Shown here piece by piece: positions 13,958 through 59,205 of a stretch of DNA of 64,000 nt (the first letter of the stretch is position 1; the number at the start of each line of letters is the position of its first letter). The notes under the pieces are model-generated. The model was not told where the DNA came from, ran no database searches, and saw only the letters and a list, made by a program, of their open reading frames with translations. The translations under genes were made by a program, and so were the position numbers. The stretch comes from Clostridiales bacterium (GTDB lineage: Bacteria > Bacillota > Clostridia > Saccharofermentanales > DTU023), in the NCBI GenBank assembly GCA_004556455.1, contig SFGY01000002.1:85902-149901 (forward strand), in the 5' to 3' direction.

Positions 13958-13959
13958 TC

Positions 13960-14340
13960 ATGTCTACTTTTAGTAAAAAGGAATTGATAGAATGTGAACG
14001 TTTAATTGGCATTCGCATTATGCAAGAGGATGCAGAATCGATATATTCTTTGCTGCAAACTGAAAGAGATCCTATTTTTATAATGGAAATTATTCCTTAT
14101 TATGCATTGTTTGTCCAGTCATGCCAAGAGTATATGGGAGAAGATTTATTTCCTAAATCAATAGCGAAAAATTTTAAAGATATTCGCAACCACATAAAGG
14201 CGTATACTGATTGTTTTAGCAAATCTCAAAAACGTGTAGCAGCAATTGATGATGCACAAGATAGAGATTTTAAAGAACAACTCAGATTTGGATTTCTAAA
14301 AAAAAAATATTCATCTGAATTTAGGAACGTACTGGACTGA
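13960..14340 (+). CDS. Hypothetical protein, R-M cargo slot (possibly the N-terminal part of a split gene)
   Basis: 126-aa ORF starting 3 nt after the hsdS stop. It ends 33 nt after an A10 run (14298-14307). I recognise no family. Confidence 0.5.
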   Translation: MSTFSKKELIECERLIGIRIMQEDAESIYSLLQTERDPIFIMEIIPYYALFVQSCQEYMGEDLFPKSIAKNFKDIRNHIKAYTDCFSKSQKRVAAIDDAQDRDFKEQLRFGFLKKKYSSEFRNVLD

Positions 14341-14383
14341 AGAAAAACAGATAATCGGTAATACTCAGCAGTTAGCAGATTTT

Positions 14384-15052
14384 TTGTCGGTCGAAAATGT
14401 ATTAGGCCCTAAAATAAAGGAGAAGAATTACCAAATAGGTTACCATATAGGCTCATTTGTTGCCTCATTCAGAAAAGGATTAGCAAATTCTTCAAATTTC
14501 CCTATTATCGAAAGAGAACGTAAATCAATCTCAATTAACTATTATTGCGATATAAACACAAATAAGAGAAATAATTTGCTTTTTAAAGGTCAAAAGAAGG
14601 AAATAAATTTATTCTATTTACATTTATTGTGCAATATGAATTTCGTTAAGTACATATTGAGACCATTGTTCCTAGATGGAAATATATGGGTTTTCAGGGT
14701 GGAATATATCGTTTCTTATTACACATTACGTGCGTTGGAACGTTTAAAAAACTATACTGAAAACAACAAGGATATAACTATTGAGAGCAAAGAAATCTAC
14801 GATATTCTTAAGTTAGGTAAAGTATTATTTAAGACAAAAGTACGTAATTGTATGATGCATTATAATCTTGAAAATGCAGGAGTCATATCTTTCGAAAATA
14901 TTGATAAACCATTTTATGGAATTATTGAAAAGTGCTTTAATGGAAAGAGTTATCAAGAATATTTAATAGAATTGCATGGGTTGTCTAATATGATAATCGA
15001 TTTTTTAAATAACCAATTTGATTTTTCTAATGTGAAGTTAGAAAGCTTTTAA
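14384..15052 (+). CDS. Hypothetical protein with HEPN-like R-x4-H motif (possibly the C-terminal part of a split gene)
   Basis: 222-aa track ORF with a TTG start and no convincing RBS or ATG. Its frame is open back to the TAA at 14297-14299, which lies inside the A10 run. It contains KVRNCMMHYNL (R-N-x3-H). Confidence 0.5.
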   Translation: MSVENVLGPKIKEKNYQIGYHIGSFVASFRKGLANSSNFPIIERERKSISINYYCDINTNKRNNLLFKGQKKEINLFYLHLLCNMNFVKYILRPLFLDGNIWVFRVEYIVSYYTLRALERLKNYTENNKDITIESKEIYDILKLGKVLFKTKVRNCMMHYNLENAGVISFENIDKPFYGIIEKCFNGKSYQEYLIELHGLSNMIIDFLNNQFDFSNVKLESF

Positions 15053-15069
15053 AGCAAATGGGAGCAACT

Positions 15070-18000
15070 ATGAGCTACGATTATTCCGAAAATATATTAG
15101 TACAAGAAAGTGCCGGTAATCTGCTCCGTGATGAATTAGGCTGGGATGTTCAGTTTGCCTATAATACAGAAGTGCTGGGTAAGAATGGCTCTTTCGGTCG
15201 AGAAAGTTATAAAGATATTCTGCTTGTTCGCTATTTTAAAGAGGCACTTAAAAAGTTCAATCCGTGGATAAATGAAAATCAGATCATTGAGGCACAGCAG
15301 CTTTTAGAAAAGAGATTGTCTACTTCTTCACTGCTACAGCTAAATGAAGAAAAATATTTTTTAATTCGTGATGGTATTCCTGTCACTGTTAAAAAACCAA
15401 ATGGACAAACTGAAACAAAAAAGGCTGCAGTGATTGATTTTCAGAACCCTGATAACAACTATTTCCTGGCAATAAAGGAATTAAAAATCCATGGAGATTT
15501 ATATCGCAGAAGAACTGACATTGTAGGCTTCGTAAATGGTATTCCACTTCTCTTTGTAGAACTCAAGAAAAATACTGTAGATGTTCAGAATGCCTATGAT
15601 GATAACTACACCGACTATCAAGATACCATTCCTCATTTGTTCTACTACAATGCATTCCTAATGCTTTCTAATGGAACAGAGGCTAAGGTCGGTACACTTG
15701 GCAGTAAGTTTGAATTCTTCCATGAATGGAAGCGTCTTGCCGAAGAAGACCAAGGAAGTGTTGCTTTAGAAACAATACTTCGTGGTATTTGTAAGAAAGA
15801 AAACTTTCTTGATTTATTTGAGAACTTTATCTTATTTGACCATTCTAAGGGTCTCACTGCAAAGATACTTGCTCGTAACCACCAGTATCTCGGTGTAAAC
15901 GAAGCGATGAAAGCCTATGCTGAAAGAAAACTTAATGACGGTAAGCTTGGTGTATTCTGGCATACACAGGGTTCAGGCAAGAGCTATTCAATGGTATTTT
16001 TTGCAAAAAAGGTGCGAAGAAAGATAGAAGGAACCCCAACCTTCGTTATCCTTACAGACCGTGATGAACTGAATACGCAGATTAGTGATACCTTTGAGAA
16101 TTGTGGACTTCTTGGTAAAGATATAAAAGCGGCTCAATTTATTGCGACAAGTGGAGATGACCTTGTTGAAAAACTGCAAGGTAATCCAAGCTTCATATTC
16201 ACTCTTATTCAGAAGTTTAATAAACCAAATGCAAAGCCTATATATCCTGATCACGATATTATTATCATGTCGGATGAAGCGCATCGAAGCCAGTATGGTA
16301 TCTTCGCTGATAACATGATAAAGCTGTTACCTACTGCTGCACGCATCGGCTTTACAGGTACGCCATTACTTTCGAGTGATAATATCACTGCTCGTACATT
16401 TGGTGGCTATGTGTCAGTTTATGACTTCAGGAGAGCCGTTGAAGATGGTGCTACAGTACCTCTTTATTACGAAAATCGTGGTGAGAAGATTGTAGATTTA
16501 CACAACCCTGAAATCACGAATCAAATCCTTGATGCTATCGAAAATGCTGACCTTGATGTTGACCAACAGGACAAGCTGGAAACCGAATTTGCAAAAGAGA
16601 TACACCTGCTCACAGCCGAGCCTAGACTGAAATCTATCGCCCAAGATTTTGTGAAACACTACTCTGACTTGTGGACAAGCGGAAAAGCTATGTTTGTTTG
16701 CTTAAACAAAGTTACCTGTGTCCGTATGTATAATTATGTTCAGGAATATTGGAAAGCAGAAATCAAAATCCTAAAAGCTAGTTTAAAAGATGCCGGTCAA
16801 CAAGAGGCTCTTGAACTTGAAAGAAAAATCAAATGGATGAAAGAAACTGAAATGGCTGTTGTAATCAGTCAGGAACAGAACGAAATCCAAACCTTCAAAA
16901 AGTGCAATTTAGACATAAAGACTCACCGTACTAAGATGGAAAAGCGTGAGTTAGATAAAGAATTTAAGGATTCAAAAAATCCGCTCCGTGTTGTATTTGT
17001 ATGTGCAATGTGGCTTACCGGCTTTGATGTTAAATGTCTTTCATGCTTATATCTCGATAAACCATTAAAGGCTCATACACTTATGCAGACCATAGCACGT
17101 GCCAACCGTGTAAGCGAAGGCAAAAGCAATGGTTTGATTATAGATTATATTGGAATCGTAAAAGCGTTAAGAAAGGCTCTTGCAGATTATACTGCACATG
17201 CAGGTGGAAATGGAGGTTCAAACCCTACAATAGATAAGGACGAACTTATTGCTCGTATTATCGAAACTATTGATAAAGCAGATGAATTCTTGAGTGAGCA
17301 TGATTTTGATTTGGAAAGGCTTATCAATGCTTATGATTTTATGAAACTATCCTACCTTCAGGAAGCAGCTAATGCAGTATGCGGTTCGATTGAGGATAAG
17401 AAAACATATACTACATATGCATCTGAATTGAATCGTCTAATGAAATATACTGACAGAGATGATATCAGCGGTCACACTCGTAAACAGTATGAAGCTATTT
17501 CCGCTATTAATGCTGAATTACAGAAAAAACGTAAACACATCAATACCACTGATCTTATGATTGAAATCAATGGGATTATAAGTGCGTATGTTAAGATTCA
17601 GCATACACCTGCTATGCTGGGTGAAGAATCATGCAGATTTGATATCAGTGCAATTGACTTTGACCTTCTTCGCAGAGAGTTTGCAAAGGTTAAGAAAAAG
17701 AATCTGCTTTTAAAGGAGTTAGAGGAAGTAATCCGGCAGAAACTTGACAGTATGCTTTTTGCTAATCCTGATCGAATGAACTATTACGAACGCTATCAGC
17801 AAATTATCGATGATTATAATAGTGAGCAGGACAGAGCCACCATTGAGAAGACTTTCATGGAATTGATGGATTTGGCTAATCAAATGAGCGATGAAGAACA
17901 ACGCTATATCCGTGAAGGCTTTACAAGTGATGAGGAACTTTCTCTTTATGATATGTTATTCCGTGACGATTTGAGTAAAGCGGACATCAAGAAACTCAAA

Positions 18001-18213
18001 GAAGTTGCAGCATCACTACTACAGAAAATAAAAACTAAAATTGCAGAATTTGACCACTGGACAGATAAGCAGGAAACAAAAGCAGCTATTGATAATCTTA
18101 TTCGTGATACCCTTTGGGAAGAATTGCCGGAGTGTTACGATGAGCTTAGTATCTCTTTGTATCGTCAGCAGATTTATGAATATGTATATACTCGATATAA
18201 AGAAGTTGCTTAA
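15070..18213 (+). CDS. hsdR: Type I restriction enzyme R subunit (helicase/endonuclease)
   Basis: About 1047 aa from MSYDYSEN (RBS gggag); the track start at 15058 is also possible. Nuclease region DIVGFVNGIPLLFVELKK. Helicase motifs HTQGSGKS, IIIMSDEAHRSQ, GFTGTP. C-terminal TQTIARANRV. Confidence 0.9.
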   Translation: MSYDYSENILVQESAGNLLRDELGWDVQFAYNTEVLGKNGSFGRESYKDILLVRYFKEALKKFNPWINENQIIEAQQLLEKRLSTSSLLQLNEEKYFLIRDGIPVTVKKPNGQTETKKAAVIDFQNPDNNYFLAIKELKIHGDLYRRRTDIVGFVNGIPLLFVELKKNTVDVQNAYDDNYTDYQDTIPHLFYYNAFLMLSNGTEAKVGTLGSKFEFFHEWKRLAEEDQGSVALETILRGICKKENFLDLFENFILFDHSKGLTAKILARNHQYLGVNEAMKAYAERKLNDGKLGVFWHTQGSGKSYSMVFFAKKVRRKIEGTPTFVILTDRDELNTQISDTFENCGLLGKDIKAAQFIATSGDDLVEKLQGNPSFIFTLIQKFNKPNAKPIYPDHDIIIMSDEAHRSQYGIFADNMIKLLPTAARIGFTGTPLLSSDNITARTFGGYVSVYDFRRAVEDGATVPLYYENRGEKIVDLHNPEITNQILDAIENADLDVDQQDKLETEFAKEIHLLTAEPRLKSIAQDFVKHYSDLWTSGKAMFVCLNKVTCVRMYNYVQEYWKAEIKILKASLKDAGQQEALELERKIKWMKETEMAVVISQEQNEIQTFKKCNLDIKTHRTKMEKRELDKEFKDSKNPLRVVFVCAMWLTGFDVKCLSCLYLDKPLKAHTLMQTIARANRVSEGKSNGLIIDYIGIVKALRKALADYTAHAGGNGGSNPTIDKDELIARIIETIDKADEFLSEHDFDLERLINAYDFMKLSYLQEAANAVCGSIEDKKTYTTYASELNRLMKYTDRDDISGHTRKQYEAISAINAELQKKRKHINTTDLMIEINGIISAYVKIQHTPAMLGEESCRFDISAIDFDLLRREFAKVKKKNLLLKELEEVIRQKLDSMLFANPDRMNYYERYQQIIDDYNSEQDRATIEKTFMELMDLANQMSDEEQRYIREGFTSDEELSLYDMLFRDDLSKADIKKLKEVAASLLQKIKTKIAEFDHWTDKQETKAAIDNLIRDTLWEELPECYDELSISLYRQQIYEYVYTRYKEVA

Positions 18214-37718: not shown

Positions 37719-38948
37719 ATGGCAAAACTCATTGCTCGGCCTGAATATTTGCGCCAACTGATTCAACACAAAGACGTCGATTTGGTGAAAATCGTAAGCG
37801 GTATTCGGCGTTGTGGGAAGTCATCACTATTAGAATTATTCCGGCAAGATTTAATAGAGACAGGCGTTCCTGAGGATCATATCCTTCATATGAATTTGGA
37901 ATCCCTGCGATATCGTACACTTTCGGATTATCTATCCTTCTATGACTATGTCAGTGAACGTATTCCAAAGGAGGGGAAGACCTATCTCATCTTCGACGAA
38001 GTTCAGAACGTGAAACATTGGGAGAAGGCTATTGAGTCATTTCGGCTGGATTTCGATGTCGATATTTATATTACCGGCTCGAATGCATATCTGCTTTCAA
38101 CGGAGTTTTCCACACTGCTTTCCGGTCGGTATGTAGAAATCCGTATGCTGCCACTCTCTTTCAAGGAGTTTTTAACGTTCTATGAATTTGCTCCTTCCGT
38201 TTCTCTCGAAGAGAAATTTCAAAAATTTTTGAAATTTGGTGGCATGCCAGTTTTGCGAGAATATAACTTTAACGAAGTGAGAATCAATCAAGCATTAGAG
38301 GGTATATATTCAACAGTTGTGCTGCGGGATATTTTGCAGCGAAACAGCTTTGCTGATCCCTCCACGCTACAGAAGATCATACTCTTTCTCTGCTCGAACA
38401 TCGGAAGTTTCAATTCTCCAAACAGCATTGGCGCTGTCCTTTCACAAGAAGGTGACATCGACCGCCGAAAGAGCAAAAGCATCGCTGGAAAAACGGTGGA
38501 GAAATATATGGCCATGCTCAGCAGCGCGTATATCTTTTATCCCGTTGGGAGATATGACATCAAAGGCAAGCAGCTTTTAAAGACTTTGGGAAAAAATTAT
38601 ATTGTGGATTTGGGAATTCGTAATTTGCTCCTTGGCTATCGAGATGCAGATCGTGGACATATTTTAGAAATTATTGTATTTCTGGAGTTGCTCAGACGCG
38701 ATTATCACGTCTCCATCGGCAAAGTTGGAGATACCGAAATTGACTTTGTTTGCGAAAAACCAGATCACAAAATGTACATTCAAGTCACAGAAAGTATGCA
38801 GCTTCCAGAAACACGGCGACGAGAATTAGCACCGCTTCAAAAGGTCGCAGACAACTATGAAAAAATGATCTTATCTATGGATCCCAGTTTTATTCAATCG
38901 TATGATGGCATAAAATCAATCTATTTATTGGATTTTCTGCTGTCCTGA
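37719..38948 (+). CDS. AAA-type ATPase (AAA_14 + DUF4143-like architecture)
   Basis: 409 aa. Walker A GIRRCGKSSLL. Walker B YLIFDEVQNV. C-terminal EIDFV region, which is restriction-endonuclease-like in this family. Sits in an AT-rich patch. Confidence 0.7.
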   Translation: MAKLIARPEYLRQLIQHKDVDLVKIVSGIRRCGKSSLLELFRQDLIETGVPEDHILHMNLESLRYRTLSDYLSFYDYVSERIPKEGKTYLIFDEVQNVKHWEKAIESFRLDFDVDIYITGSNAYLLSTEFSTLLSGRYVEIRMLPLSFKEFLTFYEFAPSVSLEEKFQKFLKFGGMPVLREYNFNEVRINQALEGIYSTVVLRDILQRNSFADPSTLQKIILFLCSNIGSFNSPNSIGAVLSQEGDIDRRKSKSIAGKTVEKYMAMLSSAYIFYPVGRYDIKGKQLLKTLGKNYIVDLGIRNLLLGYRDADRGHILEIIVFLELLRRDYHVSIGKVGDTEIDFVCEKPDHKMYIQVTESMQLPETRRRELAPLQKVADNYEKMILSMDPSFIQSYDGIKSIYLLDFLLS

Positions 38949-39185: not shown

Positions 39186-39276
39186 GGAAGCGTAGCGAAG
39201 AGGCCGTAACGCGCCGCTCTCGAAAAGCGGTTGCCGGGTGACCGGCACGTGGGTTCGAATCCCACCGCTTCCGCCA
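39186..39276 (+). tRNA. tRNA-Ser (anticodon CGA), CCA encoded
   Basis: Acceptor GGAAGCG/CGCTTCC plus discriminator G plus CCA. Anticodon stem CCGCT/AGCGG with loop CTCGAAA. Long variable arm TTGCCGGGTGACCGGCAC. T-arm GTGGG-TTCGAAT-CCCAC. 91 nt. Confidence 0.9.
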
Positions 39277-39288
39277 CAGTATTTTTCA

Positions 39289-39337
39289 GAAAATGCGAAA
39301 CCCCTGAAACGCATGTTTTCAGGGGTTTTCGTTTTTT
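39289..39337 (+). terminator. Rho-independent terminator after tRNA-Ser; also copy 1 of an imperfect direct repeat
   Basis: gaaaatgcgAAACCCCTGAAAcgcatgTTTTCAGGGGTTTtcgtttttt forms a stem-loop followed by a T-run. The sequence recurs at 41192-41257. Confidence 0.8.
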
Positions 39338-39614
39338 AACAAATGTTTAATATTGGGGTTATAACGCTAAATTTGGGTTGCTGGTTGGGTTACTGGACCC
39401 TGCTCTTAATGATATTTAAAAATGTCGTGTCGATGATTGTGGATTCTTTAAATTTTTACATCTTTCTGGTCACTTTCAGTGCTTGTAATGGGGCTATAAA
39501 CGGGGTTAGCAGAATTTAATGTTAATATCCGACCATTTATATAAACTCTCTTAACAGCTGCCTCGCCCTCAATTTAACGTTACTATGATATTTAAGGACA
39601 GATCAAAGGAAGGG

Positions 39615-39719
39615 ATGCTGCCAAAAGTGATAGAAATAATAATGCTGATCTTGGTAGTCATCCAAACAGTTATCGGACTGCTAAACTACCTTGATCAGCA
39701 CAACAAAAACGACAAGTAA
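39615..39719 (+). CDS. Tiny hydrophobic peptide A1 (34 aa), holin-like/type I toxin-like
   Basis: MLPKVIEIIMLILVVIQTVIGLLNYLDQHNKNDK*: one TM helix plus a polar N-Y-x-x-Q-H-x-K tail. Below the ORF-track size cutoff. Followed by hairpin gtagggagcgggaactccctac. Confidence 0.45.
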   Translation: MLPKVIEIIMLILVVIQTVIGLLNYLDQHNKNDK

Positions 39720-39785
39720 GTCGCACAAAGTAGGGAGCGGGAACTCCCTACCCCGACTTTACAAAATATAAGGAGAAAAGACAAT

Positions 39786-39875
39786 ATGAAAGTTATTATT
39801 TTAATTTTGATGATTGTCAATCTTGGGTTTTCAATTTTGAATTATTGGGAGAATCACAAACATGGACGGAAGTAA
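39786..39875 (+). CDS. Tiny hydrophobic peptide A2 (29 aa)
   Basis: MKVIILILMIVNLGFSILNYWENHKHGRK*. RBS aaggag 12 nt upstream. The 3' end overlaps the start of the next ORF (39862). Confidence 0.5.
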   Translation: MKVIILILMIVNLGFSILNYWENHKHGRK

Positions 39876-40098
39876 AAAGCGCAAAGCAGTTTACAATCCT
39901 GATGCCGACAAGCGTTGGAGAGAAAAGAACAAAGAGCGTGCAAGGTATTTAACGGACCGGACCTCCTGCAGACGTTTTTTGCGAGACAAAGCCACGGAAG
40001 AAGATCTTGAGGAAATGGAGCAGCTTATAGCCGAAAGACGCCAACAACTAAAAAATGTCCCCCATGTTCCCTTGAGATGTGATACATTGGTGTTGTGA
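39862..40098 (+). CDS. Small basic helical protein P1 (78 aa), paralog of 40999..41187
   Basis: MDGSKKRKAVYNPDADKRWREKNKERARYLTDRTSCRRFLRDKATEEDLEEMEQLIAERRQQLKN... aligns to P2 with shared residues W, N, E, AR, R, R, F, R, A, D, EE, LI, ER and L, about 40% identity by hand. Confidence 0.55.
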   Translation: MDGSKKRKAVYNPDADKRWREKNKERARYLTDRTSCRRFLRDKATEEDLEEMEQLIAERRQQLKNVPHVPLRCDTLVL

Positions 40099-40216
40099 AA
40101 TCAGATACTGTTAATGGCGCGAAGTCTACACTAAGTATTAATCTGGAAACTGGTGTGGTTACTACGATCCATAAAACGCATTCAAAGCTGATTGAAAAAA
40201 TAGAAGGGAGCAACAA

Positions 40217-40444
40217 ATGATTTTTCATCTAAATAAAGATGAAAGAAAATTGCTCCAAGATTTTAATATAGATTTTCGCTCTGACTTTGATTACTCTGAC
40301 GAAGAAGCGTTTGCTTTACTGGATCAAGTTCATGACGCTGAGATTTTCTACGCTCAGGACTCCGATACAAATGGACGATCACGCTATATGGCAAATTTCC
40401 ATGCAGATTTAGCTGATAAAATACAATCTCTTATACCAGGATAA
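40217..40444 (+). CDS. Small acidic hypothetical protein (75 aa), immunity-protein-like
   Basis: MIFHLNKDERKLLQDFNIDFRSDFDYSDEEAFALLDQVHDAEIFYAQDSD... RBS gaagggag. I recognise no family. Confidence 0.45.
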   Translation: MIFHLNKDERKLLQDFNIDFRSDFDYSDEEAFALLDQVHDAEIFYAQDSDTNGRSRYMANFHADLADKIQSLIPG

Positions 40445-40639
40445 AATCAACAGTATTAATTTTGAAGTACCGCTCGCCAGGGCGGTTTTTATTTGCCTGA
40501 AAATAGCAATATGCACAAAAACAAGGGCTGAAATTTGTGCAAATAATATGTGAAAACGGCTTGATGATATATAACACCGGCGTTATAACACGGACAGAAC
40601 TTAGAGATAAGTTCAAAACAAAAGAAAGGAGGAAGGTCA

Positions 40640-40729
40640 GTGGATATAGGCATAATAATAGCCCTGGTCAGTCTGATAGTTGAGATCATCGACCTGATCG
40701 TTAACTATAAGGACAATCACAAAGACTAG
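40640..40729 (+). CDS. Tiny hydrophobic peptide B1 (29 aa, GTG start)
   Basis: (M)DIGIIIALVSLIVEIIDLIVNYKDNHKD*. Strong RBS aaaggagga 8 nt upstream. It has the same N-Y-x-D-N-H-K tail as A1/A2. Followed by hairpin gcaggggcgtaagcccctgc. Confidence 0.5.
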   Translation: MDIGIIIALVSLIVEIIDLIVNYKDNHKD

Positions 40730-40786
40730 GGCCAATGCAGGGGCGTAAGCCCCTGCTATCTGCCTATACCATAGCCTAAAAACAGT

Positions 40787-40873
40787 ATGAATGCAACTTT
40801 GACGGTGATACTTATTCTGAATCTGATCGTTAGCTGTTTGAATTTGTGGCTGACATTTAAGCGGTGCAAGTAA
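40787..40873 (+). CDS. Tiny hydrophobic peptide B2 (28 aa)
   Basis: MNATLTVILILNLIVSCLNLWLTFKRCK*. No clear RBS. A third related frame (..IIKIIAALAFCTAAVALLIVKLKERDKHDKDQ*, ending 41019) lacks a canonical start. Confidence 0.35.
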   Translation: MNATLTVILILNLIVSCLNLWLTFKRCK

Positions 40874-40998
40874 GCTTGCTTGTACTGAGCTTTTAGCACC
40901 GTATGACTTTGGACGTATAATTAAGATTATCGCAGCGCTGGCCTTTTGCACCGCTGCAGTAGCCCTGTTGATCGTTAAATTGAAAGAGAGAGACAAAC

Positions 40999-41187
40999 AT
41001 GACAAAGACCAGTGAAGCACAAAAACGCGCGTCAAGAGCTTGGGAAGCGCGAAATCCTGAAAAAGCCAGAAAGGATCGCTACAGAAGAACGGCGCGGCTC
41101 TTCATCCGCAGCCATGCCGACATGGACGATATAGAAGAACTTTTGACGTTAATTGAAGAGCGAAAAGCCGCCCTGAGTAAGCAATAA
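40999..41187 (+). CDS. Small basic helical protein P2 (62 aa), paralog of 39862..40098
   Basis: MTKTSEAQKRASRAWEARNPEKARKDRYRRTARLFIRSHADMDDIEELLTLIEERKAALSKQ. Its start overlaps the end of the preceding hydrophobic frame, exactly as in module A (..aaacATGga.. versus ..aaacATGac..). Confidence 0.6.
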   Translation: MTKTSEAQKRASRAWEARNPEKARKDRYRRTARLFIRSHADMDDIEELLTLIEERKAALSKQ

Positions 41188-41191
41188 TGTT

Positions 41192-41257
41192 GAAAAATGC
41201 GAGATCGAGCGGCTCGCCCTATCTTGTGAAACCCCTGAAAACGCAAATTTTCAGGGG
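41192..41257 (+). repeat. Copy 2 of the tRNA-Ser-downstream repeat (terminator-like hairpin with a 26-nt insertion)
   Basis: gaaaaatgcga[gatcgagcggctcgccctatcttgtg]AAACCCCTGAAAAcgcaaaTTTTCAGGGG. Compare 39289-39325. Confidence 0.7.
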
Positions 41258-41424
41258 CATTTAATTTTTAAAAGCCACGAAAAGCTCACAGCATTCAGCT
41301 GATAATTTTCAGAGACTTTTCCTGTCAAGGAATTTTCAAGGCAGTCGTATAATGACTCCCATTATCTTTGATTCATCAGCCAGGTTGAACGCGACAATAT
41401 AAAAAAGGCAGAGAGCGCCACAAT

Positions 41425-41667
41425 TTACAGCAGCTCGCGCAGGACGAGATCGCTGACGCCGGGGGAAACACGTTCGAGCCGCAGGATGCGGGGATCGTGG
41501 GAATAGTTTTCTTCGATGAATTTTTGCAGCGAATCGCCATGGTGATAGCCATGGATCAGGCGAATGCGGTAAAGGCCGTAGACATGTTTCAGAGCCGCTT
41601 CGATTTTAATCTGGGCTTGATAACGGTTGAGGCCGTGCAGGTCGATTTCTTTCATGGCGCTGGGCAT
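41425..41667 (-). CDS. Small Smr-domain protein (80 aa from MPSAMKEIDLHG; the track start at 41727 gives 100 aa)
   Basis: IDLHGLNRYQAQIKIEAAL...IRLIHGYHHGDSLQKFI matches the Smr pattern (LDLHG ... i.HG.G...). The ATG at 41667 lies 9 nt after the upstream stop. Confidence 0.65.
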   Translation of the reverse strand: MPSAMKEIDLHGLNRYQAQIKIEAALKHVYGLYRIRLIHGYHHGDSLQKFIEENYSHDPRILRLERVSPGVSDLVLRELL

Positions 41668-41675
41668 AACGTGCC

Positions 41676-43274
41676 TTAAAAAACCGAAGGGCGATTGATT
41701 CGCCGCTCGAACTCCGACATATCCCATTGATTGCGGATGGCGATGCCCAGGGGGAGGTCGGGATAAATCCCATAGCGCTGGAAAAAGGCTTCCAGGGGCA
41801 TTTTGCTTTCCTGCAGGTATTTGATAATTGCTGCGAGAAAGTGCCGGGTGTTGGGCATGGAGAGTTCCGAGATCAGGGCCAGGTGCGGCCAGTCAAAGCG
41901 CTGAGGGCCAAGCCTCAGGGTTTTAAACCATTGTTCCGTTTGCTCAGACTCCTGGGGGGAGAGGCTGCCGGTCTGTCTGGCCAGAATATGGCAGAGCTCC
42001 GCCAGGCCTTTTTGTACGGTCGAGCGAGGGTAGGCAAATTGCAGCGTGAGCCAGCCCTGCAGGTAGAGATAGTGGCTGGCCCGCATCATGATGATGGAGA
42101 TGAGTCGATCAACTTCGGCGCCCCGTGTTAGCGTAGCAAGGGCAGGGAAGAGGACGGCGAGATCCCGGTAGTTGAGAGAAAATGCAAACTCGCTCAGGGC
42201 GTGCTTGTCTGCACAATGGTTGATCTGGGCAATGAGCCAGGTACGATGGGCCTGTTGCTGGGCCAGCTGCATTTCGCGCGGGAGGGGCAACGACTGCCGG
42301 CCAAAGGTGACGGCGTCGGCAAAGCTTTCCAGGCTGGAGTTGCTGCGCGGCACAAAAAATGGTGGGCGCAGCTTTCCGCTCTTGATCGGGCGCATTTGCA
42401 GACCCGACGGAGAAGCCACCAAGCTGTTTTGGCTGTCCTTTATACGCTCGCTGTCGTGACCTTCCCTGCTTTTGGCAGCGGCAGATGGAAGAGGCATTCC
42501 CTTGCTGATGTCTGAGTTTTCCGGGGGCGTGAAGTGACTGTCGGAGACAGATGCTGAGCCTGCCGTTTTCTGCGTATCAAGCTTATCAAGCGTGTTAGCA
42601 GCTCTTTTCAGTCCGGAGGATCTATCCTCTTTTTTGCTTCCGTCCGGGTGCTCGCTCGCACCTTCACTCAGGACGTCTCCAGTTCTTTGAGACTTTCCAG
42701 ACCGCTCTATATCCCCTGGCTTTTGAAAGTCATCAAGCCTCTGGGCTTCACCAGGCCTTTGAAATTCCATCGGTCTTTGAATTTTCCCAGACTGCTGAGA
42801 CTGCAGAGACTGTAGCGGTCTCTTAATTTCACCAGCCCTTAGAGATTCCTTTGGTCTTTGAACTTCCCCAGGCTGTTGAGGCTCGGCTGAGCTTTGTATT
42901 TCCCAGGAGTTATGAGATTCTTCAGTTTGTTGAGACTGGTCGGCCTCCAGGGCAGTTGATATTAACTCAGCTTTCAGCCCTGCTTCCCCGTCCTGCTCCT
43001 CGGCAAACCAGGTAGCTTTGGGCTGTAACCTGACCCTGCGAACGCCAGAAGGCGAACCCCCAAGAACGCCTGAAGGTGAAACTTCGGCAAATGAAACTCC
43101 AGAAGGCCAAACGCCAGAAGGCGATCCCCCGGCAGGCGAAACTCCGGAAGTGACTTTTTCTTCACGCGGCGCAGGCTTTTTGCTTTCCTCAGCAAAAAGA
43201 GAGCGGGCGAAGTCCCGCATGGGATTGCGTTGGGCAGCCAGAAAGGGATCGGGAAACTCGGGATGCTGGGGCAT
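41676..43274 (-). CDS. Hypothetical 532-aa protein: ~300-aa P/S/G/Q-rich repeat region plus ~230-aa globular C-terminal domain
   Basis: N-terminal repeats (SPAGGSPSGVWPSGVSFAEVSPSGVLGGSPSGV; EVQRPKE/EIKRPLQ/KIQRPME/FQRPGE/FQKPGD). The C-terminal domain runs REMQLAQQQAHRTWLIAQINHCAD...FFQRYGIYPDLPLGIAIRNQWDMSEFERR. Its RBS (aaggag) lies inside the end of the upstream gene. Confidence 0.6.
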   Translation of the reverse strand: MPQHPEFPDPFLAAQRNPMRDFARSLFAEESKKPAPREEKVTSGVSPAGGSPSGVWPSGVSFAEVSPSGVLGGSPSGVRRVRLQPKATWFAEEQDGEAGLKAELISTALEADQSQQTEESHNSWEIQSSAEPQQPGEVQRPKESLRAGEIKRPLQSLQSQQSGKIQRPMEFQRPGEAQRLDDFQKPGDIERSGKSQRTGDVLSEGASEHPDGSKKEDRSSGLKRAANTLDKLDTQKTAGSASVSDSHFTPPENSDISKGMPLPSAAAKSREGHDSERIKDSQNSLVASPSGLQMRPIKSGKLRPPFFVPRSNSSLESFADAVTFGRQSLPLPREMQLAQQQAHRTWLIAQINHCADKHALSEFAFSLNYRDLAVLFPALATLTRGAEVDRLISIIMMRASHYLYLQGWLTLQFAYPRSTVQKGLAELCHILARQTGSLSPQESEQTEQWFKTLRLGPQRFDWPHLALISELSMPNTRHFLAAIIKYLQESKMPLEAFFQRYGIYPDLPLGIAIRNQWDMSEFERRINRPSVF

Positions 43275-43280
43275 CGGTGA

Positions 43281-44837
43281 TTACTCCTTTTTGCCGGGGC
43301 GAAGCGCCACGGGGAGGGCATCGACCGCATCTCGAATCGCGGAAGCTGTAAAGATAAGACGCTCCACAACTTCGGCAAGTCCCTGGTCGAAGCTTTTCAG
43401 AGTTTGATTTACATAGACCGCAGACTCCTGAGTGAAATTCTTGCTGCTCAGGCGAAGCGTCTCGCTGATCTCCTTCAGCTCGCTGATCAGATTGCTCAGG
43501 CGTTCATGGAGATCATCATTTTGACGCCCCTGTTCATCCTGCATCTCATGGATCAGCTGCAAAATTTCACTGCTGCCCTGGAGGTTCTGACTAAGAACGG
43601 TCGTCGAGCTTTCCATGGAGATGGCGAGCTGCTTGATCTTTTCGCTGAGGCCATATTCTTCACCGGCATAGGTTTTGCTCATGGCTTTGCTGCTTTCGCT
43701 GACCACGCGGATATTATCCGAGAGCTCCAGCATTTCGTTGGCCAGATCGTTTTTGGCCTGACCCATCAGCAGCAGCGAGTCACGGATGTCTTTATTGAGG
43801 GCGATGTTTTCGTCGCGTGAAGTTTGAAGGACATCAATACTGCTCTGGACGAAGGATTGTGTATCGGCCATCACCCGATTAAGACGATCCAGCTCCATCT
43901 TGAGGGGATTGAGTTCGCGCGCCAGAGAGGCGGCAACAGAGGTAGAAAAGGTTCCGGCCAGGCTTTCCATCCCCTGCATCTGACGTTGATCCAGATGGGT
44001 CGCAAGGTCGGCGAGGACATTGGCAGACTGCCTTATGGGAGGCGAAATTTCATCTTTCATGATGCGGGAAACCGCTTTATAAATGCCGCTGCCAAAGTCG
44101 GCGTCGGCCATTTTCTGAGCAATGCCCTGGAAGTCGCGAAAACTTTCACTCACCCGCTGCTCATGCTCGGCCAGGCTTTCGACCAGCAAGGCGGCCCCGC
44201 GGTTATCGTCGTAGACCGGAAGCACTTCGCAGATCTGCGTGCGGAAACCCTCCTGAGCCTGGCTCAGTTCACGCCTCAATTCAAGAGAGCCGTTGGCCAG
44301 CACTGCGGCAATAATACAGGCGAAGACCAGAGGAATCAGTGCAAGACCCTTCTGGAAGCCGACAGCGCTGATGGCGATAAAAAGGTAAAGGAAAAGTGCA
44401 GACAGCAAACCCAGTGAGGCGATGGTGATGGAAGGGCTAAAACTCAGGGCGGAGCGGGCTTCGGCGGAAATATAATTCTCACTCATGGAAAGTCCGTCGA
44501 GCGGGGGCATCCAGCGCCCGCCATAACGCAGCACACTGGCGCGTTTAAGAGCCTGCCAGGCGCTGCTCAGGCGCTTTTGTCCTAGAGCTTCAATCGCTTC
44601 TGTGACCGCCGGAAGGTTTTCCATGCTGCAGTTTTCCATCTTTTCCAGATGGCTGCTGAGTTCTTCTGTGGCTTCAGCGAGTGCCGCGCGTGCCGCAGAG
44701 ATTTTACGCTGATAGATGAACCCGCAAATCACTAAAACCAGGGGCATCCCCATGGCAAAAAAGGCAACAATGACCTGAGATAAGCGGGCAGGTGAAATGG
44801 CGCTCTGAACGCTCAGAAAAAATGGAGCAGCAATCAT
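43281..44837 (-). CDS. Hypothetical 518-aa membrane protein: TM1, ~100-aa loop, TM2-TM3 hairpin, ~330-aa helical tail
   Basis: Start MIAAPFFLS with RBS gaggaggt; the track start at 44876 is upstream. TMs: VIVAFFAMGMPLVLVICGFIY, ITIASLGLLSALFLYLFIAISAV and GLALIPLVFACIIAAVLANG. The tail is S/L/E/Q-rich and looks heptad-like. Confidence 0.6.
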   Translation of the reverse strand: MIAAPFFLSVQSAISPARLSQVIVAFFAMGMPLVLVICGFIYQRKISAARAALAEATEELSSHLEKMENCSMENLPAVTEAIEALGQKRLSSAWQALKRASVLRYGGRWMPPLDGLSMSENYISAEARSALSFSPSITIASLGLLSALFLYLFIAISAVGFQKGLALIPLVFACIIAAVLANGSLELRRELSQAQEGFRTQICEVLPVYDDNRGAALLVESLAEHEQRVSESFRDFQGIAQKMADADFGSGIYKAVSRIMKDEISPPIRQSANVLADLATHLDQRQMQGMESLAGTFSTSVAASLARELNPLKMELDRLNRVMADTQSFVQSSIDVLQTSRDENIALNKDIRDSLLLMGQAKNDLANEMLELSDNIRVVSESSKAMSKTYAGEEYGLSEKIKQLAISMESSTTVLSQNLQGSSEILQLIHEMQDEQGRQNDDLHERLSNLISELKEISETLRLSSKNFTQESAVYVNQTLKSFDQGLAEVVERLIFTASAIRDAVDALPVALRPGKKE

Positions 44838-44928
44838 GCGACTTACCTCCTCAAAACTCCCTTTAGATAAAAGCACGTTGTGCGTGTAGTCCTCGTTATT
44901 ATAACACTTTGGTTCAGGCTCTTTTTCA

Positions 44929-44958
44929 TTGACAGAGGTGGGTAAGAATCGATAAAAT
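44929..44958 (+). promoter_or_regulatory. Candidate sigma-A promoter for pyrG
   Basis: TTGACA (44929-44934), 18 nt, TAAAAT (44953-44958), about 70 nt upstream of the pyrG ATG. Confidence 0.45.
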
Positions 44959-45028
44959 CATACTGATTTTGTGCGACCTGGCGGGGTTGTGTCCGTCCAT
45001 GACGCGAGAGGGAAGGAACGAACAAACA

Positions 45029-54303: not shown

Positions 54304-54531
54304 AAGAACACGCTAATTATTAAACTTGGGGTTGTTATGAATCCCAGTTTAATTTTTATAATGAAGATTGAAAATTGATAAAAACGTTAGTGACTCTACA
54401 TTGAAATAAATTAGCTGATCTAAGCAGGGCAGGTTTTTATGTTGCGGTCATAAGTGCTGACATAGTATAGCTATTGTGTATGAAAAAAATTTTTTAATAG
54501 ATTTCAAAGGTTAATGTATGAGAGGGTTAGA

Positions 54532-55182
54532 ATGAAGAGAGTTTTGATTATAGAGGATAATAAAGAAATTGCCTTACAAATGGAAAAGTATTTAGTTAAT
54601 AAGGGTTATGAGGTAGAGCTTGCATCATCTTTTTACGAAGCAAACTATAAGATGAATCTAGACATGGATGTGGCACTACTTGATATAAATCTACCAGATA
54701 AAGATGGCCAACATTTGATAGAAAAATTAAAAGATAAGGACATAAGAGTTATTGTAACAACAGTAAAAAATGATGAAGATTTTATAATTGATGCCCTAGA
54801 TCAAGGAGCAGACGACTATTTAACTAAACCATTTTCCCTTGCAATATTAAGGGCTAGAATTGATGCGGTTTTAAGGACAATACCTCTAAGTCAAGACAAA
54901 AAAATTACTTACAAGGATATCAAAATAGATTTAAATGATTCAAAAGTTTATTTTAAAGGTAATCAAATAGATCTAACTCCACTTGAATATGAAATCCTAG
55001 TTTTATTTATTAAAAATCCTCACCGAGTTTATACGAGAGGCCAGCTGTTAGAAATGTTTTGGGAAGATAGGGATAGGTTTGTAAATGACAATACTCTCAC
55101 ATCAACTATTAAGAGAATCAGAGAAAAACTTGATAAGGAAGTAATTTCTACTGCTAGAGGAATTGGATATAGGATGGATTGA
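54532..55182 (+). CDS. OmpR/PhoB-family response regulator
   Basis: MKRVLIIEDNKEIAL...LLDINLPDKDG receiver. Winged helix LTPLEYEILVLFIKNPHRVYTRGQLLEMFW. Very AT-rich. Confidence 0.85.
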   Translation: MKRVLIIEDNKEIALQMEKYLVNKGYEVELASSFYEANYKMNLDMDVALLDINLPDKDGQHLIEKLKDKDIRVIVTTVKNDEDFIIDALDQGADDYLTKPFSLAILRARIDAVLRTIPLSQDKKITYKDIKIDLNDSKVYFKGNQIDLTPLEYEILVLFIKNPHRVYTRGQLLEMFWEDRDRFVNDNTLTSTIKRIREKLDKEVISTARGIGYRMD

Positions 55183-55183
55183 G

Positions 55184-56044
55184 ATGATATATGTATTTTG
55201 GATAATAAGTCTGGGACTTCTTTATTATTTTTTAGAAAAAAGAAAGAAAAATAGAATAAATGAGCTTATAGATCTGATAGAAAAAATGAAGAATCAAGAC
55301 TATAAAATTCCTATGAAGCAAGACGATTTTTCGATTTTAGAAGATAAGATTTACAAACTTTTTATAGAAATAGTCGAAGCAAAAGAGACAAGTACTAGAA
55401 ATAGTGAAAAGCAAATAGAATACCTAGAAGATATCGCCCATCAAATTAAAACTCCTATTACATCTATGCTTTTTTCCATAGATAGTTTGGAGATGGACTT
55501 TCCAGATAAGGATGATATAGAGATTTTAAAAAGGCAAACAATCAGATTAAACTCCCTATCAGATATTTTGCTTAAACTATCAAGCCTTGATGCAAACAAA
55601 GATCTTATGAAAAAAGAACAAATTCGTTTAGATGAATTAGTGGATTATGCTTTAGATAGTTTAGATTTAAGAAAATCTATCAATGTAGAAATAGAGAAGA
55701 GTTTAAAGAAAAATAGCATTTGTGGAGATTTTTATTGGCTGGCAGAAGCTATCATCAATATTATAAAGAATGCTGTTAATAGACCGACTTGTGACAAAAT
55801 TGTGGTTTCATCATACAAAAATCCCCTATATACAAGCTTAATCATTGAAGACAATGGAGGAGGAATAGAAAAAGAAAATATTAAAAAAATCTTTAAACGC
55901 TTTTATAAAACACCCGACTCAAATGGCTTTGGAATAGGTCTTGCTATGGCGAAGACAATTGTCGAAAAAAACAACGGAGAAATTTCTGTTTCCAATATTG
56001 ATGCTGGAGCAAGATTTGAAATTAAATTTTACAATGTCACCTAA
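55184..56044 (+). CDS. Small histidine kinase with a single N-terminal TM and no extracellular sensor (intramembrane-sensing type)
   Basis: MIYVFWIISLGLLYYFL TM. H-box LEDIAHQIKTPITSM. ATPase IIEDNGGGI...GFGIGLAMAKTIVEKNNGEI. Its start is 1 nt after the regulator stop. Confidence 0.8.
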   Translation: MIYVFWIISLGLLYYFLEKRKKNRINELIDLIEKMKNQDYKIPMKQDDFSILEDKIYKLFIEIVEAKETSTRNSEKQIEYLEDIAHQIKTPITSMLFSIDSLEMDFPDKDDIEILKRQTIRLNSLSDILLKLSSLDANKDLMKKEQIRLDELVDYALDSLDLRKSINVEIEKSLKKNSICGDFYWLAEAIINIIKNAVNRPTCDKIVVSSYKNPLYTSLIIEDNGGGIEKENIKKIFKRFYKTPDSNGFGIGLAMAKTIVEKNNGEISVSNIDAGARFEIKFYNVT

Positions 56045-56096
56045 AAATCACTTTACTTTTATATGCTTACCTTGACATAAGAAAAAGGAGGCAGTT

Positions 56097-56777
56097 ATGG
56101 AAATATTAAAAGTAGAAAACCTAAGAAAAGAATATGGAGAGGAAAACTCCAAGGTCATTGCTTTAGATGGAGTTGACCTTACAATAGAAAGGGGCGAATT
56201 CGTTGCCATTGTAGGCCCTAGTGGATCTGGTAAATCTACACTTTTGCACATTGTAGGAGGAGTAGATAGTCCAGATGATGGCAAGGTTTATATAGATGGT
56301 AACGACATCTCTAAGTATTCTTCAAAAGAATTAGCATACTTCAGAAGAAGGAAAGTCGGACTAATTTATCAATTTTATAATTTGATTTCAAATTTAACAA
56401 TCAGACATAACATAGAACTTCCACTAAAACTTGATAAAAGGAAAATCAATGAGGAAACCTTATTAGATACAGTTAGGAAACTTGGTATAGAAAGTAAACT
56501 CAACTCTTTCCCAAGTGAGCTTTCAGGAGGTCAACAGCAGAGAGTTGCCATAGCGAGAAGTCTCATCTATAGTCCATCTATCATATTGGCAGATGAACCG
56601 ACTGGAAACTTGGATAGAAAAAATTCTAAGGAAATAATTGAAATTTTTAAATATTTTAACAAGACTTTAAAACAGACGATTATCCTAATCACCCATGACG
56701 AAGAAATAGCCCTACAAGCAAATCGAATTATTACAATAGTAGATGGAAAAATTGTAGGAGATGAGAAACATGAATAA
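56097..56777 (+). CDS. ABC transporter ATP-binding protein (MacB/BceA-type)
   Basis: GPSGSGKST, LSGGQQQRVAIARS, ILADEPTGNLD. Confidence 0.85.
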   Translation: MEILKVENLRKEYGEENSKVIALDGVDLTIERGEFVAIVGPSGSGKSTLLHIVGGVDSPDDGKVYIDGNDISKYSSKELAYFRRRKVGLIYQFYNLISNLTIRHNIELPLKLDKRKINEETLLDTVRKLGIESKLNSFPSELSGGQQQRVAIARSLIYSPSIILADEPTGNLDRKNSKEIIEIFKYFNKTLKQTIILITHDEEIALQANRIITIVDGKIVGDEKHE

Positions 56778-59205
56778 GAAGAATTTTCCTATTTTCATCT
56801 CATTATTTATTGTAAGTCTGTTTTTTGCTGTGATTTTTTATTACGGATATACAAATATGAAGGCTAACTATGGTTATTACATGGCTTCAAGCTTTTATCA
56901 TGGAGAGATTAAAGAAGAACTTTCAAATGAAGATGTTGAAAAACTAAAGTCCATTGAAGATATAGATTTGGTCGGAAAAATGTCTCTTAATCCTGACAAT
57001 GGAAAATTTGCTGACGATTTAGTTGTTATCAACTACCAAGACCAAGCAATCAATAAGATGAGGGAGTATTCAAGATTAATTGAAGGCAGATTTGCTGAAA
57101 AGGAAGACGAAATTGTACTATCTGAAAGTCTTGTAAAGGAAAATGAACTTAAAATAGGCGACAAGATAGAACTTGATTTAGGCAAAAGGTTTTTAGATGG
57201 AGAAGAGATAGGTCCAACAAGTGCAAATACTGGCAGGGAAAAATTTGAGAGCCAAGGTTCTAAAAGCTTTAATTTAGTCGGTGTTTATGGAGACGTCTAC
57301 AATAAGTACAGTAAACTAAATTTTGCTCTAGGGCTACAAGATAAAATGCCTTCATTTAGAACATTTATAAAGTTTAATTCTTTCGAAGAAGCTTATAAGA
57401 ATAGAAATAAGATACAAAGTGAAATAAACAAAATACTTGGTAAAGATGTTCATTTAGAATTTTCAGAGAGCCTCATAAATTATTACGGAGTAGAAAACGA
57501 ACTCTTACAAAATATAATGAAAAAGGCCGTTCTTGTTCTATCGGTTCTTGGATGCATAGCAATATTTGTGTTTTTTATAAAAAACATCTTTTGGGTTTGG
57601 GGGCTTAGGAAAATTAGAGAGCTTTCCATTTACAAGTCTATAGGATCTACCAATGGACAAATTTATTTCTTACTTCTAAAGGAAGGACTTGTTACAACTG
57701 CAATTCCAATACTCTTAGGACACATTGCAGGATTTTTCTTTATGTATTGTTTGTATAAAAACATAACAAAAGGTGAAAGAGTAAGTGCCTTTGAAGGAGT
57801 AAAATTCAATCCCTTATTAAGTTTGGCGATACTTGTAGTTTCCTTTGTGATTGTAGCATTAGCTATTAAATCCCCTGCGAAAAAGATTTCTAAAATAAAT
57901 ATTATAGACGGCATAAGAGGAAATATAGATTTTTCAAAATCTAAGAAGAAAAGAGCCAAAGATTTTTGGAAGGAATTAAAACGCAACAACTTGGCATCAA
58001 TAAATTCACAGAGATATATTTCGGCAATAGGGATAGTTATAATTTCGGCGTTTATAATCATCACAGGCATCTCAATATACTACAGAGATTTTTCGCATTA
58101 CGATGATGGCTATAATTTTTCTGTGGGCTATTTTAGCGAAAATAACCAAGTCCCAAAAATATTAAAAGAAATTGTAGATAAAATTCCTAACGAAAAGTCT
58201 TATATTTCAAAAGATAAATATGTTCAAGTAGAAAACAATAACGAATTCTCAAAAGAAGCAAAGGCAGCAGGTTTAGATGAGGAAGCGAAAAAGAATATAG
58301 AAAAATATAAGGCAAAGGGTATGGATGGATTTATCATCGCCTTGGAAGAAAAAGATTTAAAAGAACTTGGAGGAAAGGAGGGTGAATTTGTCCTCTACAA
58401 TACAATTCAAGAAGATTCTTCTATTCCAATAGCTAAGGCAAATAGAATTCCCTATTTTGAAAACCCACAGACTTTAGACATTAACTTTGCAAATGATTAT
58501 AAGAAGACTATTAAAATTTCAAAGACGATAACAGATTTGGGAAAATATAAGTCGAAAACAAGACCCTTCGATGTAAAAGTTTATACAGATTTTGACACCT
58601 ATTTTAAACTTATGGAAGAAGCAGGTGATGAGAAGTATTCGGAATATGCCTACACTTTAAATATGAAGGTAAAAGATTCTGAAACCAAAGATGTAAAAGA
58701 ATATGTAGAAGCCATGATCAGGGAACAACTTTCACCTGAAGATAGATTTAATATCATAATAGATGAAGAAATCGTAACAAATGAATATAAGGCAGAGAAA
58801 AGTTTTATAAAAATTGTAATAGGAATAGCATCGATCATCTTTGTACTAAATATCACAAACGGTTACTCATCCATTAATTTAAGTCTTATGAGCAGAAAAA
58901 AAGAAATCGGCAGCCTTTACTCTTGTGGGATGGACGTAGATGAGCTAAAGAACATCTATCAAAAAGAATTTATTGAAGAACAGGTAAAATCCTTTATAAT
59001 TTCTATTATGGTGAGTTTAGGAGTTATGTTTATAATATCTTTAGTAGCCCCTGATTTAAGAATGGGTACTTTAATAAAATATTATGACTATAAAAGTTTC
59101 TTAGGATTTTCATTAGTCGTCTATGGTATTAATCTAATAATCTATCACTTCTCCTTAAAGAGAATTTTAGACAGACCGACCATAGATTTAATTCGAACAA
59201 TATAA
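56761..59205 (+). CDS. FtsX-family ABC permease (large, BceB/MacB-like)
   Basis: 814 aa. N-terminal TM, a large extracytoplasmic region, TM clusters around 57500-57900 and at the C-terminus (FtsX-type 4-TM bundles). Confidence 0.75.
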   Translation: MRNMNKKNFPIFISLFIVSLFFAVIFYYGYTNMKANYGYYMASSFYHGEIKEELSNEDVEKLKSIEDIDLVGKMSLNPDNGKFADDLVVINYQDQAINKMREYSRLIEGRFAEKEDEIVLSESLVKENELKIGDKIELDLGKRFLDGEEIGPTSANTGREKFESQGSKSFNLVGVYGDVYNKYSKLNFALGLQDKMPSFRTFIKFNSFEEAYKNRNKIQSEINKILGKDVHLEFSESLINYYGVENELLQNIMKKAVLVLSVLGCIAIFVFFIKNIFWVWGLRKIRELSIYKSIGSTNGQIYFLLLKEGLVTTAIPILLGHIAGFFFMYCLYKNITKGERVSAFEGVKFNPLLSLAILVVSFVIVALAIKSPAKKISKINIIDGIRGNIDFSKSKKKRAKDFWKELKRNNLASINSQRYISAIGIVIISAFIIITGISIYYRDFSHYDDGYNFSVGYFSENNQVPKILKEIVDKIPNEKSYISKDKYVQVENNNEFSKEAKAAGLDEEAKKNIEKYKAKGMDGFIIALEEKDLKELGGKEGEFVLYNTIQEDSSIPIAKANRIPYFENPQTLDINFANDYKKTIKISKTITDLGKYKSKTRPFDVKVYTDFDTYFKLMEEAGDEKYSEYAYTLNMKVKDSETKDVKEYVEAMIREQLSPEDRFNIIIDEEIVTNEYKAEKSFIKIVIGIASIIFVLNITNGYSSINLSLMSRKKEIGSLYSCGMDVDELKNIYQKEFIEEQVKSFIISIMVSLGVMFIISLVAPDLRMGTLIKYYDYKSFLGFSLVVYGINLIIYHFSLKRILDRPTIDLIRTI

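Follow-up and report, generated by a model that had tools for sequence, protein, structure and literature searches.

We analysed 64,000 nucleotides of a Clostridiales bacterium (assembly GCA_004556455.1, contig SFGY01000002.1, positions 85,902 to 149,901 of the forward strand; this whole stretch is called the window below, and its numbering is used throughout unless another locus is named) and concentrated on three consecutive minus-strand genes, here designated G1, G2 and G3, the first two of which form a conserved pair that resembles components of the Zorya defence system. The three open reading frames (ORFs) are the following, with lengths in amino acids (aa):

43281..44837, minus strand: G1, a 518-aa membrane protein with a predicted ZorA/ExbB-like N-terminal domain and a helical tail of ~330 aa (ORF from ATG)
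41676..43274, minus strand: G2, a 532-aa putative cytoplasmic partner in which a helix motif at the N terminus and a disordered repeat region precede a conserved core domain (ORF)
41425..41667, minus strand: G3, an 80-aa stand-alone Smr-domain protein (ORF)

The initial annotation had described these genes as a tightly spaced operon with each ribosome-binding site (RBS) at the end of the preceding gene, situated between a tRNA-Ser islet and pyrG, of backbone-like GC content, and lacking a MotB/ZorB-like partner, an ATPase or a helicase, and this description agrees with what we found. Gene calls made independently on identical metagenome contigs also give products of 518, 532 and 80 aa. The RBS of G1, GGAGG, lies at 44846-44850, 8 nt ahead of the ATG, and a longer GTG-start ORF would reach 44876. 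The G1 stop and the G2 ATG are separated by 6 nt, with AAGGAG inside the 3' end of G1, and the G2 stop and the G3 ATG by 8 nt, where the RBS is just a weak TAAGG; a longer ATG-start ORF to 41727, overlapping G2, is an alternative for G3. No convincing intrinsic terminator was detected between or after the three genes, the scan counts being at the level of shuffled sequence. Upstream of G1, pyrG lies in divergent orientation; the GC content of the G1-G2-G3 region (0.51-0.55) is backbone-like, compared with 0.39-0.41 in the islet towards tRNA-Ser(CGA), and no MotB/ZorB-like gene, ATPase or helicase occurs in the flanks.

Hydropathy analysis of G1 points to three transmembrane (TM) helices, with a cytoplasmic domain between the first and the second, and a C-terminal tail of ~330 aa. 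The same topology had been proposed initially, and the AlphaFold2 (AF2) model, a monomer built from a 19-sequence alignment, agrees with it. Three segments of the protein are referred to below:

44709..44789, minus strand: TM1 of G1, aa ~17-43 (hydropathy; a long helix, 16-65, in the AF2 model)
44274..44447, minus strand: TM2-TM3 hairpin of G1, aa ~131-188 (hydropathy)
43302..43442, minus strand: tail tip of G1, aa 466-512, FT.ES..YVNQTL..FD.GLAEVVERLIFTASAIRDAVDALP, the best-conserved segment of the protein

Zorya is a four-part defence machine in which the ion-driven ZorAB motor senses envelope damage and the tail recruits ZorC and ZorD; the ion filter of ZorA consists of Thr147/Ser184, and B subunits have a single TM helix that carries an essential Asp. 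The predicted local distance difference test (pLDDT) score of the G1 model is ~80 for residues 1-210 and lower for the tail, which is predicted as three long helices. In a Foldseek comparison of this model with the PDB, ZorA chains (8qyh, 8qyk, 8qyd and 8qyy) lead the list (E ~3e-3, probability 1.0), with target-normalised template-modelling scores of 0.46-0.51, and are followed by dozens of ExbB and TolQ chains. The published ZorA structure likewise has three TM helices, with a cytoplasmic domain close to the membrane and a tail that spans residues 223-729 (PMC11946911).

Profile comparisons point in the same direction. A search among 5.8 billion clustered proteins recovered 19 relatives of G1, and in a PADLOC scan of these 19 proteins, 10 matched the ZorA1 model PDLC00598, a hidden Markov model (HMM), with a best E of 5.2e-8; six further PADLOC ZorA models were also matched by family members. 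The ZorA1 matches are colinear, running from residue ~210 to the C terminus of the protein against positions ~375-660 of the 663-position profile, so that they cover the tail only, and they end in the tail tip at profile position 660/663. Across 55 family members, the mean frequency of the most common residue is 0.69 in the tail tip (466-512) and 0.56 in tail residues 241-300, as opposed to 0.29-0.39 in the membrane part. On the strength of the model, G1 is a three-TM protein with an ExbB/ZorA fold, as the initial comparison with such proteins had suggested, and the profile alignments make its helical tail, in the cytoplasm, a probable homologue of the distal part (about half) of the tail of ZorA. 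Taken with the published ZorA architecture, the fold matches and the colinear HMM matches make G1 look like a shortened ZorA relative.

One genome per species was scanned for G1, and the neighbourhoods were examined within 10 kb. G1 was found in 62 species-level genomes, all of them Clostridia save one, with record names that include Saccharofermentanales, Fastidiosipila, Saccharofermentans, Mageeibacillus and unclassified Clostridia. G2 follows G1 directly and on the same strand in all of the ~50 loci with enough downstream DNA, mostly with gaps of -8 to +17 nt, and a G2 homologue also directly follows G1 on each of seven further contigs obtained from G1 relatives. The pair recurs in three contexts: (A) divergent from pyrG-guaB-greA-lysS, which is the arrangement in the window, (B) directly after recG-rsmD-coaD-(192-aa coiled-coil)-ddl, with ddl-to-G1 gaps mostly of -11 to 61 nt, and (C) directly after fabD-pepM29 (peptidase M29). 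Pairwise identities of G1 correlate with those of PyrG (Spearman 0.82), Ddl (0.80) and G2 (0.89), and searches of viral contigs and plasmids turned up no relatives. These syntenic contexts, the co-divergence with PyrG and Ddl and the lack of viral or plasmid copies are the signature of vertically inherited core genes rather than of a defence island. Beyond G2, no downstream gene and no single-TM gene is conserved within 10 kb in the ~50 loci; no gene like ZorB or ZorD (Snf2/nuclease) is present in any locus, and no other nuclease or helicase is conserved in cis. The conserved unit is thus a pair and not a trio: of the three-gene operon proposed initially, G1 and G2 stand together in ~50 loci, and in core contexts instead of defence islands, while G3 is a species-specific neighbour. 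The alternative that the initial annotation had also entertained, a conserved lineage-specific backbone operon, fits G1-G2.

Some loci of this survey showed peculiarities of their own. The carrier outside the Clostridia (L073; WOZB01000284.1) has G1-G2 on a 4.3-kb contig binned as Anaerolineaceae, an assignment that is probably a binning error. In 23 species, the gene that separates coaD from ddl, a short way ahead of G1-G2, encodes a conserved coiled-coil protein of ~190 aa (L019-L021, L029, L037, L043, L057, L059 and others; e.g. L059 8157-8735), which has a weak match to V-ATPase_G_2 (E 3.6e-4). In L076, a third gene (8978-9721) overlaps the end of G2 and encodes 247 aa made up of a Zn-ribbon and a disordered linker, a single TM helix that lacks an Asp, and an outside domain of ~100 aa; Pfam gives no match for it, none of the other loci carries a counterpart, and it was rejected as a general B-subunit candidate. 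An apparent 750-aa G1-G2 fusion in L052 (9977-12229) proved to be an artefact, the ORF spanning masked N bases, and was discarded as evidence of interaction.

The second member of the pair has no TM segment by hydropathy. As the initial annotation had noted, a disordered repeat region precedes a C-terminal domain, the first 300 aa being rich in S, G, E, P and Q and the remainder conserved:

43185..43226, minus strand: conserved short N-terminal motif of G2, aa ~17-30, NPMRDFARSLFAEE, kept despite variable linkers
43093..43150, minus strand: 15-nt tandem repeat in the disordered region, encoding SGV-S/W-P pentapeptides (Tandem Repeats Finder: period 15, 3.9 copies)
41727..42338, minus strand: core domain of G2, aa 313-516, ~200 aa (matches an HMM built from the long-form core with E 4e-39)

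A clustered protein search gave 15 relatives of the C-terminal domain, and a trimmed core profile, searched exhaustively against 1.84 billion representatives, retrieved just 86 proteins at E <= 1e-3. The G2 homologues on the seven further contigs measure 326-666 aa, with a conserved C-terminal domain of ~230 aa and a variable N-terminal part. Overall, the family falls into a short form, to which G2 of the window belongs (N-terminal motif, disordered linker and core domain), and a long form, in which the core domain stands at the N terminus and is followed by a second domain of ~205 aa with near-invariant W264, H287, D327 and Y338 (P0076 numbering). The form correlates with genomic context, long forms being found in context C and in the remote loci L076 and L077, where a G1 homologue again lies immediately upstream; the loci surveyed for the two forms include L025, L030, L054-L058, L064, L071, L072 and others (G2 at ~11460-12960) and L076 (7753-8988). 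The second domain is absent from G2 of the window and from the window as a whole.

It is mostly this second domain that points to a connection of the family with ZorC. When 78 G2 family members were scanned with PADLOC, the ZorC1/EH signature was the only recurrent family (four models, best E 2e-3), and the ZorC1 matches in four members share one consistent register, at profile positions ~165-323. With Pfam, the top and only recurrent family among 34 long-form members was EH_Signature (PF15611; E 2.4e-3). Two libraries therefore agree for a gene that lies beside a ZorA-like one, which makes a chance match unlikely, and we regard the second domain of the long form, judged by these alignments, as resembling the EH-signature domain of ZorC weakly but repeatedly. 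The relationship to ZorC/EH_Signature that the initial annotation had named for checking is thus seen as a faint recurrent signal in long-form relatives and is absent from G2 of the window.

Several results weigh against a Zorya relationship of the pair. Neither G1 nor G2 of the window matches any Pfam, NCBIfam or PADLOC model, so the link to Zorya comes through their relatives. For G1, the family profile does not match ZorA among the PDB sequences, the AF2 model is mediocre (pLDDT 64.7 overall), and the ZorA HMM matches fall in a coiled-coil-like tail whose composition could inflate scores; indeed, the SMC-like coiled-coil models JetC and LmuB also score with the G1 family, more weakly. For G2, the ZorC/EH_Signature matches are all sub-threshold (E >= 2e-3) and lie mostly in the domain that the window protein lacks, and the long-form profile matches no ZorC, including EcZorC, among the PDB sequences. 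A profile homology search with the long form at E <= 10 returned family members only and no ZorC; the core profile had no match whatever among the PDB sequences, and the AF2 model of the core is poor (pLDDT 60) and gave only noise with Foldseek. Finally, no adjacent B subunit (ZorB/MotB/ExbD/TolR) was found, G2 following G1 directly in ~50 loci, in a search that covered the flanks within 10 kb and leaves room for a B subunit elsewhere in the genome.

Set beside ZorA itself (8QYD; PADLOC ZorA1/ZorA2), G1 shares the three TM helices, of which the first two enclose a cytoplasmic domain, and the long C-terminal helical tail; ZorA is also its best structural match in the PDB, the sequence similarity of the tail in the G1 family to the distal tail and tip of ZorA1 is colinear, and the gene is followed by one for a soluble partner related to ZorC. 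It differs in that no ZorB adjoins it, its tail measures ~330 aa instead of the ~500 aa of EcZorA, its membrane helices are poorly conserved, with no recognisable Thr/Ser filter and no match to Pfam MotA_ExbB (PF01618; no match at E <= 1), and it is a vertically inherited core-genome gene of single-membrane Clostridia, bacteria in which Zorya has been reported to be under-represented (PMC11946911). ExbB, TolQ and MotA have the overall fold of the G1 membrane domain in common with it, but they possess no long tail, are always paired with ExbD, TolR or MotB and have conserved pore-lining helices, none of which is true of G1. As regards ZorC (EH_Signature, PF15611; 8R68), G2 is likewise soluble, is encoded beside a ZorA-like gene and has a conserved N-terminal helical segment, and its long-form relatives match ZorC1 and EH_Signature in one register, all below threshold; in contrast, G2 of the window has a disordered repeat linker in place of the EH-like second domain, there is no ZorD partner and the family profile misses the EcZorC sequence. 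Compared with the canonical type I order (zorA-zorB-zorC-zorD), only the ZorA-like and ZorC-like genes are present here.

With moderate confidence, we interpret G1-G2 as a module of two genes that is related to Zorya and passed on vertically within one lineage of Clostridia; the module would serve as a membrane-to-cytoplasm scaffold without a nearby motor partner and would have a constitutive, envelope-linked role. By analogy with ExbB and ZorA, G1 may oligomerise in the membrane, as a pentamer, and project its helical tail, the conserved tip of which would bind G2 through the N-terminal helix of G2, its core domain, or both. In Zorya, the ZorA tail tip is required for effector recruitment and the N-terminal helices of ZorC are required for function, DNA binding by ZorC depending on the EH motif and the C-terminal domain (PMC11946911). 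In the clade of the window, G2 would have lost the EH-like domain and gained the disordered linker, which makes DNA binding of the ZorC type unlikely. Since no B subunit is encoded nearby and no ion-filter or pore residue is recognisably conserved, G1-G2 is more likely to be a scaffold or sensor, static or conformational, between membrane and cytoplasm than an ion-driven rotary motor. Because the pair has a core-genome setting and often forms an operon with ddl, its role is probably constitutive, and possibly envelope-linked, rather than that of a mobile defence.

What is new here is a Zorya-related pair without ZorB or ZorD in a core genome, Zorya itself being already known. Tentatively, one may go further and suppose that this ZorB-independent module of a ZorA-like and a ZorC-like protein serves single-membrane Clostridia as a housekeeping device, constitutive and inherited vertically, such as an envelope-to-cytoplasm scaffold or sensor co-expressed with genes for cell-wall precursors. 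If so, the Zorya architecture would have a relative outside defence, whether ancestral or domesticated, which needs no ion-driven motor to work. A pair lacking both motor partner and nuclease would be evidence that tail and adaptor can function apart from the rest of Zorya, and would offer a natural minimal system for the roles of the tip of the ZorA tail and of the core of ZorC and for the origin of Zorya. It also opens a first way, through structure and evolution, into two protein families currently without annotation.

An anti-phage function is unlikely in our judgement, even though parts of the evidence would suit it. The locus would then encode a minimal Zorya variant for single-membrane bacteria, with G1 as envelope-damage sensor, G2 as adaptor and, in this species, the Smr protein as nicking effector, analogous to ZorE of type II Zorya. 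The relatedness of G1 to ZorA and of G2 to ZorC is consistent with this, and so is the assignment of G3, which the initial annotation had made and which we could support below threshold: G3 matches Pfam Smr (PF01713) with E 1e-4 and 22.8 bits, under the gathering cutoff of 25.7 and as its sole match in Pfam, NCBIfam and PADLOC, aligns by phmmer over ~66 residues (5-70) with the Smr domain of Thermus thermophilus MutS2 (2zqe; E 1.4e-4), and retains IDLHG and LIHGYHHG, the D-x-H and HG-x-G motifs of a fold known for nicking endonucleases. It differs from the known Smr proteins (MutS2, and SmrB/SmrA of Escherichia coli) in comprising only 80 aa and no other domain; hydropathy showed no TM segment. 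Smr ORFs occur within 6 kb of the pair in two other lineages, (i) L012, the nearest one (G1 51% identical), where a 56%-identical G3 orthologue lies 6 kb away on the opposite strand, and (ii) L076, where a more divergent copy without DLHG lies 4 kb away. However, G3 adjoins G1-G2, starting 8 nt past G2, solely in the species of the window, and in all other loci (~60 further species) no Smr ORF was found within 10 kb.

With adjacency in a single species as the neighbourhood evidence, Smr was rejected as a component of the system, and the initial idea of a membrane sensor coupled to an Smr nuclease is not supported. G3 lies outside the conserved module, though it is probably co-transcribed with it here; it is probably an unrelated small protein of the ribosome- or nucleic-acid-nicking type, downstream of the pair in this species only, and its co-transcription is best seen as an accident of local rearrangement beside the tRNA-Ser islet. 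Further arguments against defence concern the pair itself. Defence systems are typically patchy and carried in islands or on mobile elements, whereas G1-G2 is syntenic in ~60 species, has backbone GC, co-diverges with PyrG and Ddl, has no copies on viral contigs or plasmids, often lies co-oriented a few nt after ddl or pepM29, and is accompanied by no nuclease or helicase conserved in cis; the real defence and accessory islands of the window lie elsewhere and have low GC.

Equally improbable is that G1 is part of a functional ion-driven 5:2 motor, with the gene for the B subunit (ZorB/MotB/ExbD/TolR-like) lying in another part of the genome. The known members of the ExbB/ZorA fold all work with a B-subunit dimer (PMC11946911), the membrane domain of G1 has this fold, and our search for B subunits covered locus neighbourhoods only. 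Against this, conservation within G1 is among the lowest in TM2 and TM3: by column counts over the 55 members, G143 and P169 are the only well-conserved residues of TM2-TM3, and positions 141 and 177, compared with the Thr/Ser filter of ZorA without a residue-level structural alignment, hold a Ser/Ala mixture, so that the filter is not recognisably conserved. To our knowledge, the B gene adjoins the A gene in all known systems, and here G2 leaves no room for it in ~50 loci, with no single-TM protein conserved nearby.

We consider it still less credible that G1 is a lineage-specific membrane-anchored coiled-coil protein without Zorya ancestry (e.g. a division or morphogenesis scaffold) whose likeness to ZorA is generically helical, since, despite the missing MotA_ExbB and PADLOC matches of the window proteins, the scores of JetC and LmuB, fold-search E-values of just ~3e-3 and the proximity of the pair to ddl and genes for penicillin-binding proteins in many species, the fold matches are dominated by a single superfamily (ZorA, ExbB, TolQ), the matches to ZorA HMMs are as good as E 5e-8, with most members anchored to the C-terminal end of the profile, and the neighbouring gene family points independently to ZorC in two separate libraries.

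The surroundings of the three genes comprise the following features:

44838..45028, no strand: 191-bp divergent intergenic region between G1 and pyrG (sequence and pyrG gene call), with a promoter-like site at 44929-44958 on the plus strand
39186-39276: tRNA-Ser(CGA)
10905-12725, plus strand: hsdM
12722-13957, plus strand: hsdS
15058-18213, plus strand: hsdR

The AT-rich islet between tRNA-Ser(CGA) and G3 (39300-41400) contains several small ORFs, two of which (39862-40098, 78 aa, and 40999-41187, 62 aa) look paralogous, with a basic N terminus and an acidic C terminus ('EE.E.LI.ER'), and have no Pfam match; a strong hairpin terminator lies in the islet at 41232-41257. Just past tRNA-Ser(CGA), an AAA_14/DUF4143 ATPase gene occupies 37719-38948. 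The two acquired low-GC islands of the window, at 10.9-18.2 kb and 54.5-59.2 kb, are both >10 kb from G1-G2. The first of them (10905-18213, plus strand; GC 0.30-0.40) encodes the type I restriction-modification system listed above, with a 222-aa ORF (14384-15052) between hsdS and hsdR. The second (54514-59205, plus strand; GC 0.30-0.33) encodes a two-component pair (histidine kinase and OmpR-type response regulator) together with an ABC ATPase and a permease of the FtsX/MacB type measuring 814 aa, and probably represents an acquired peptide-resistance module resembling BceRS/BceAB.

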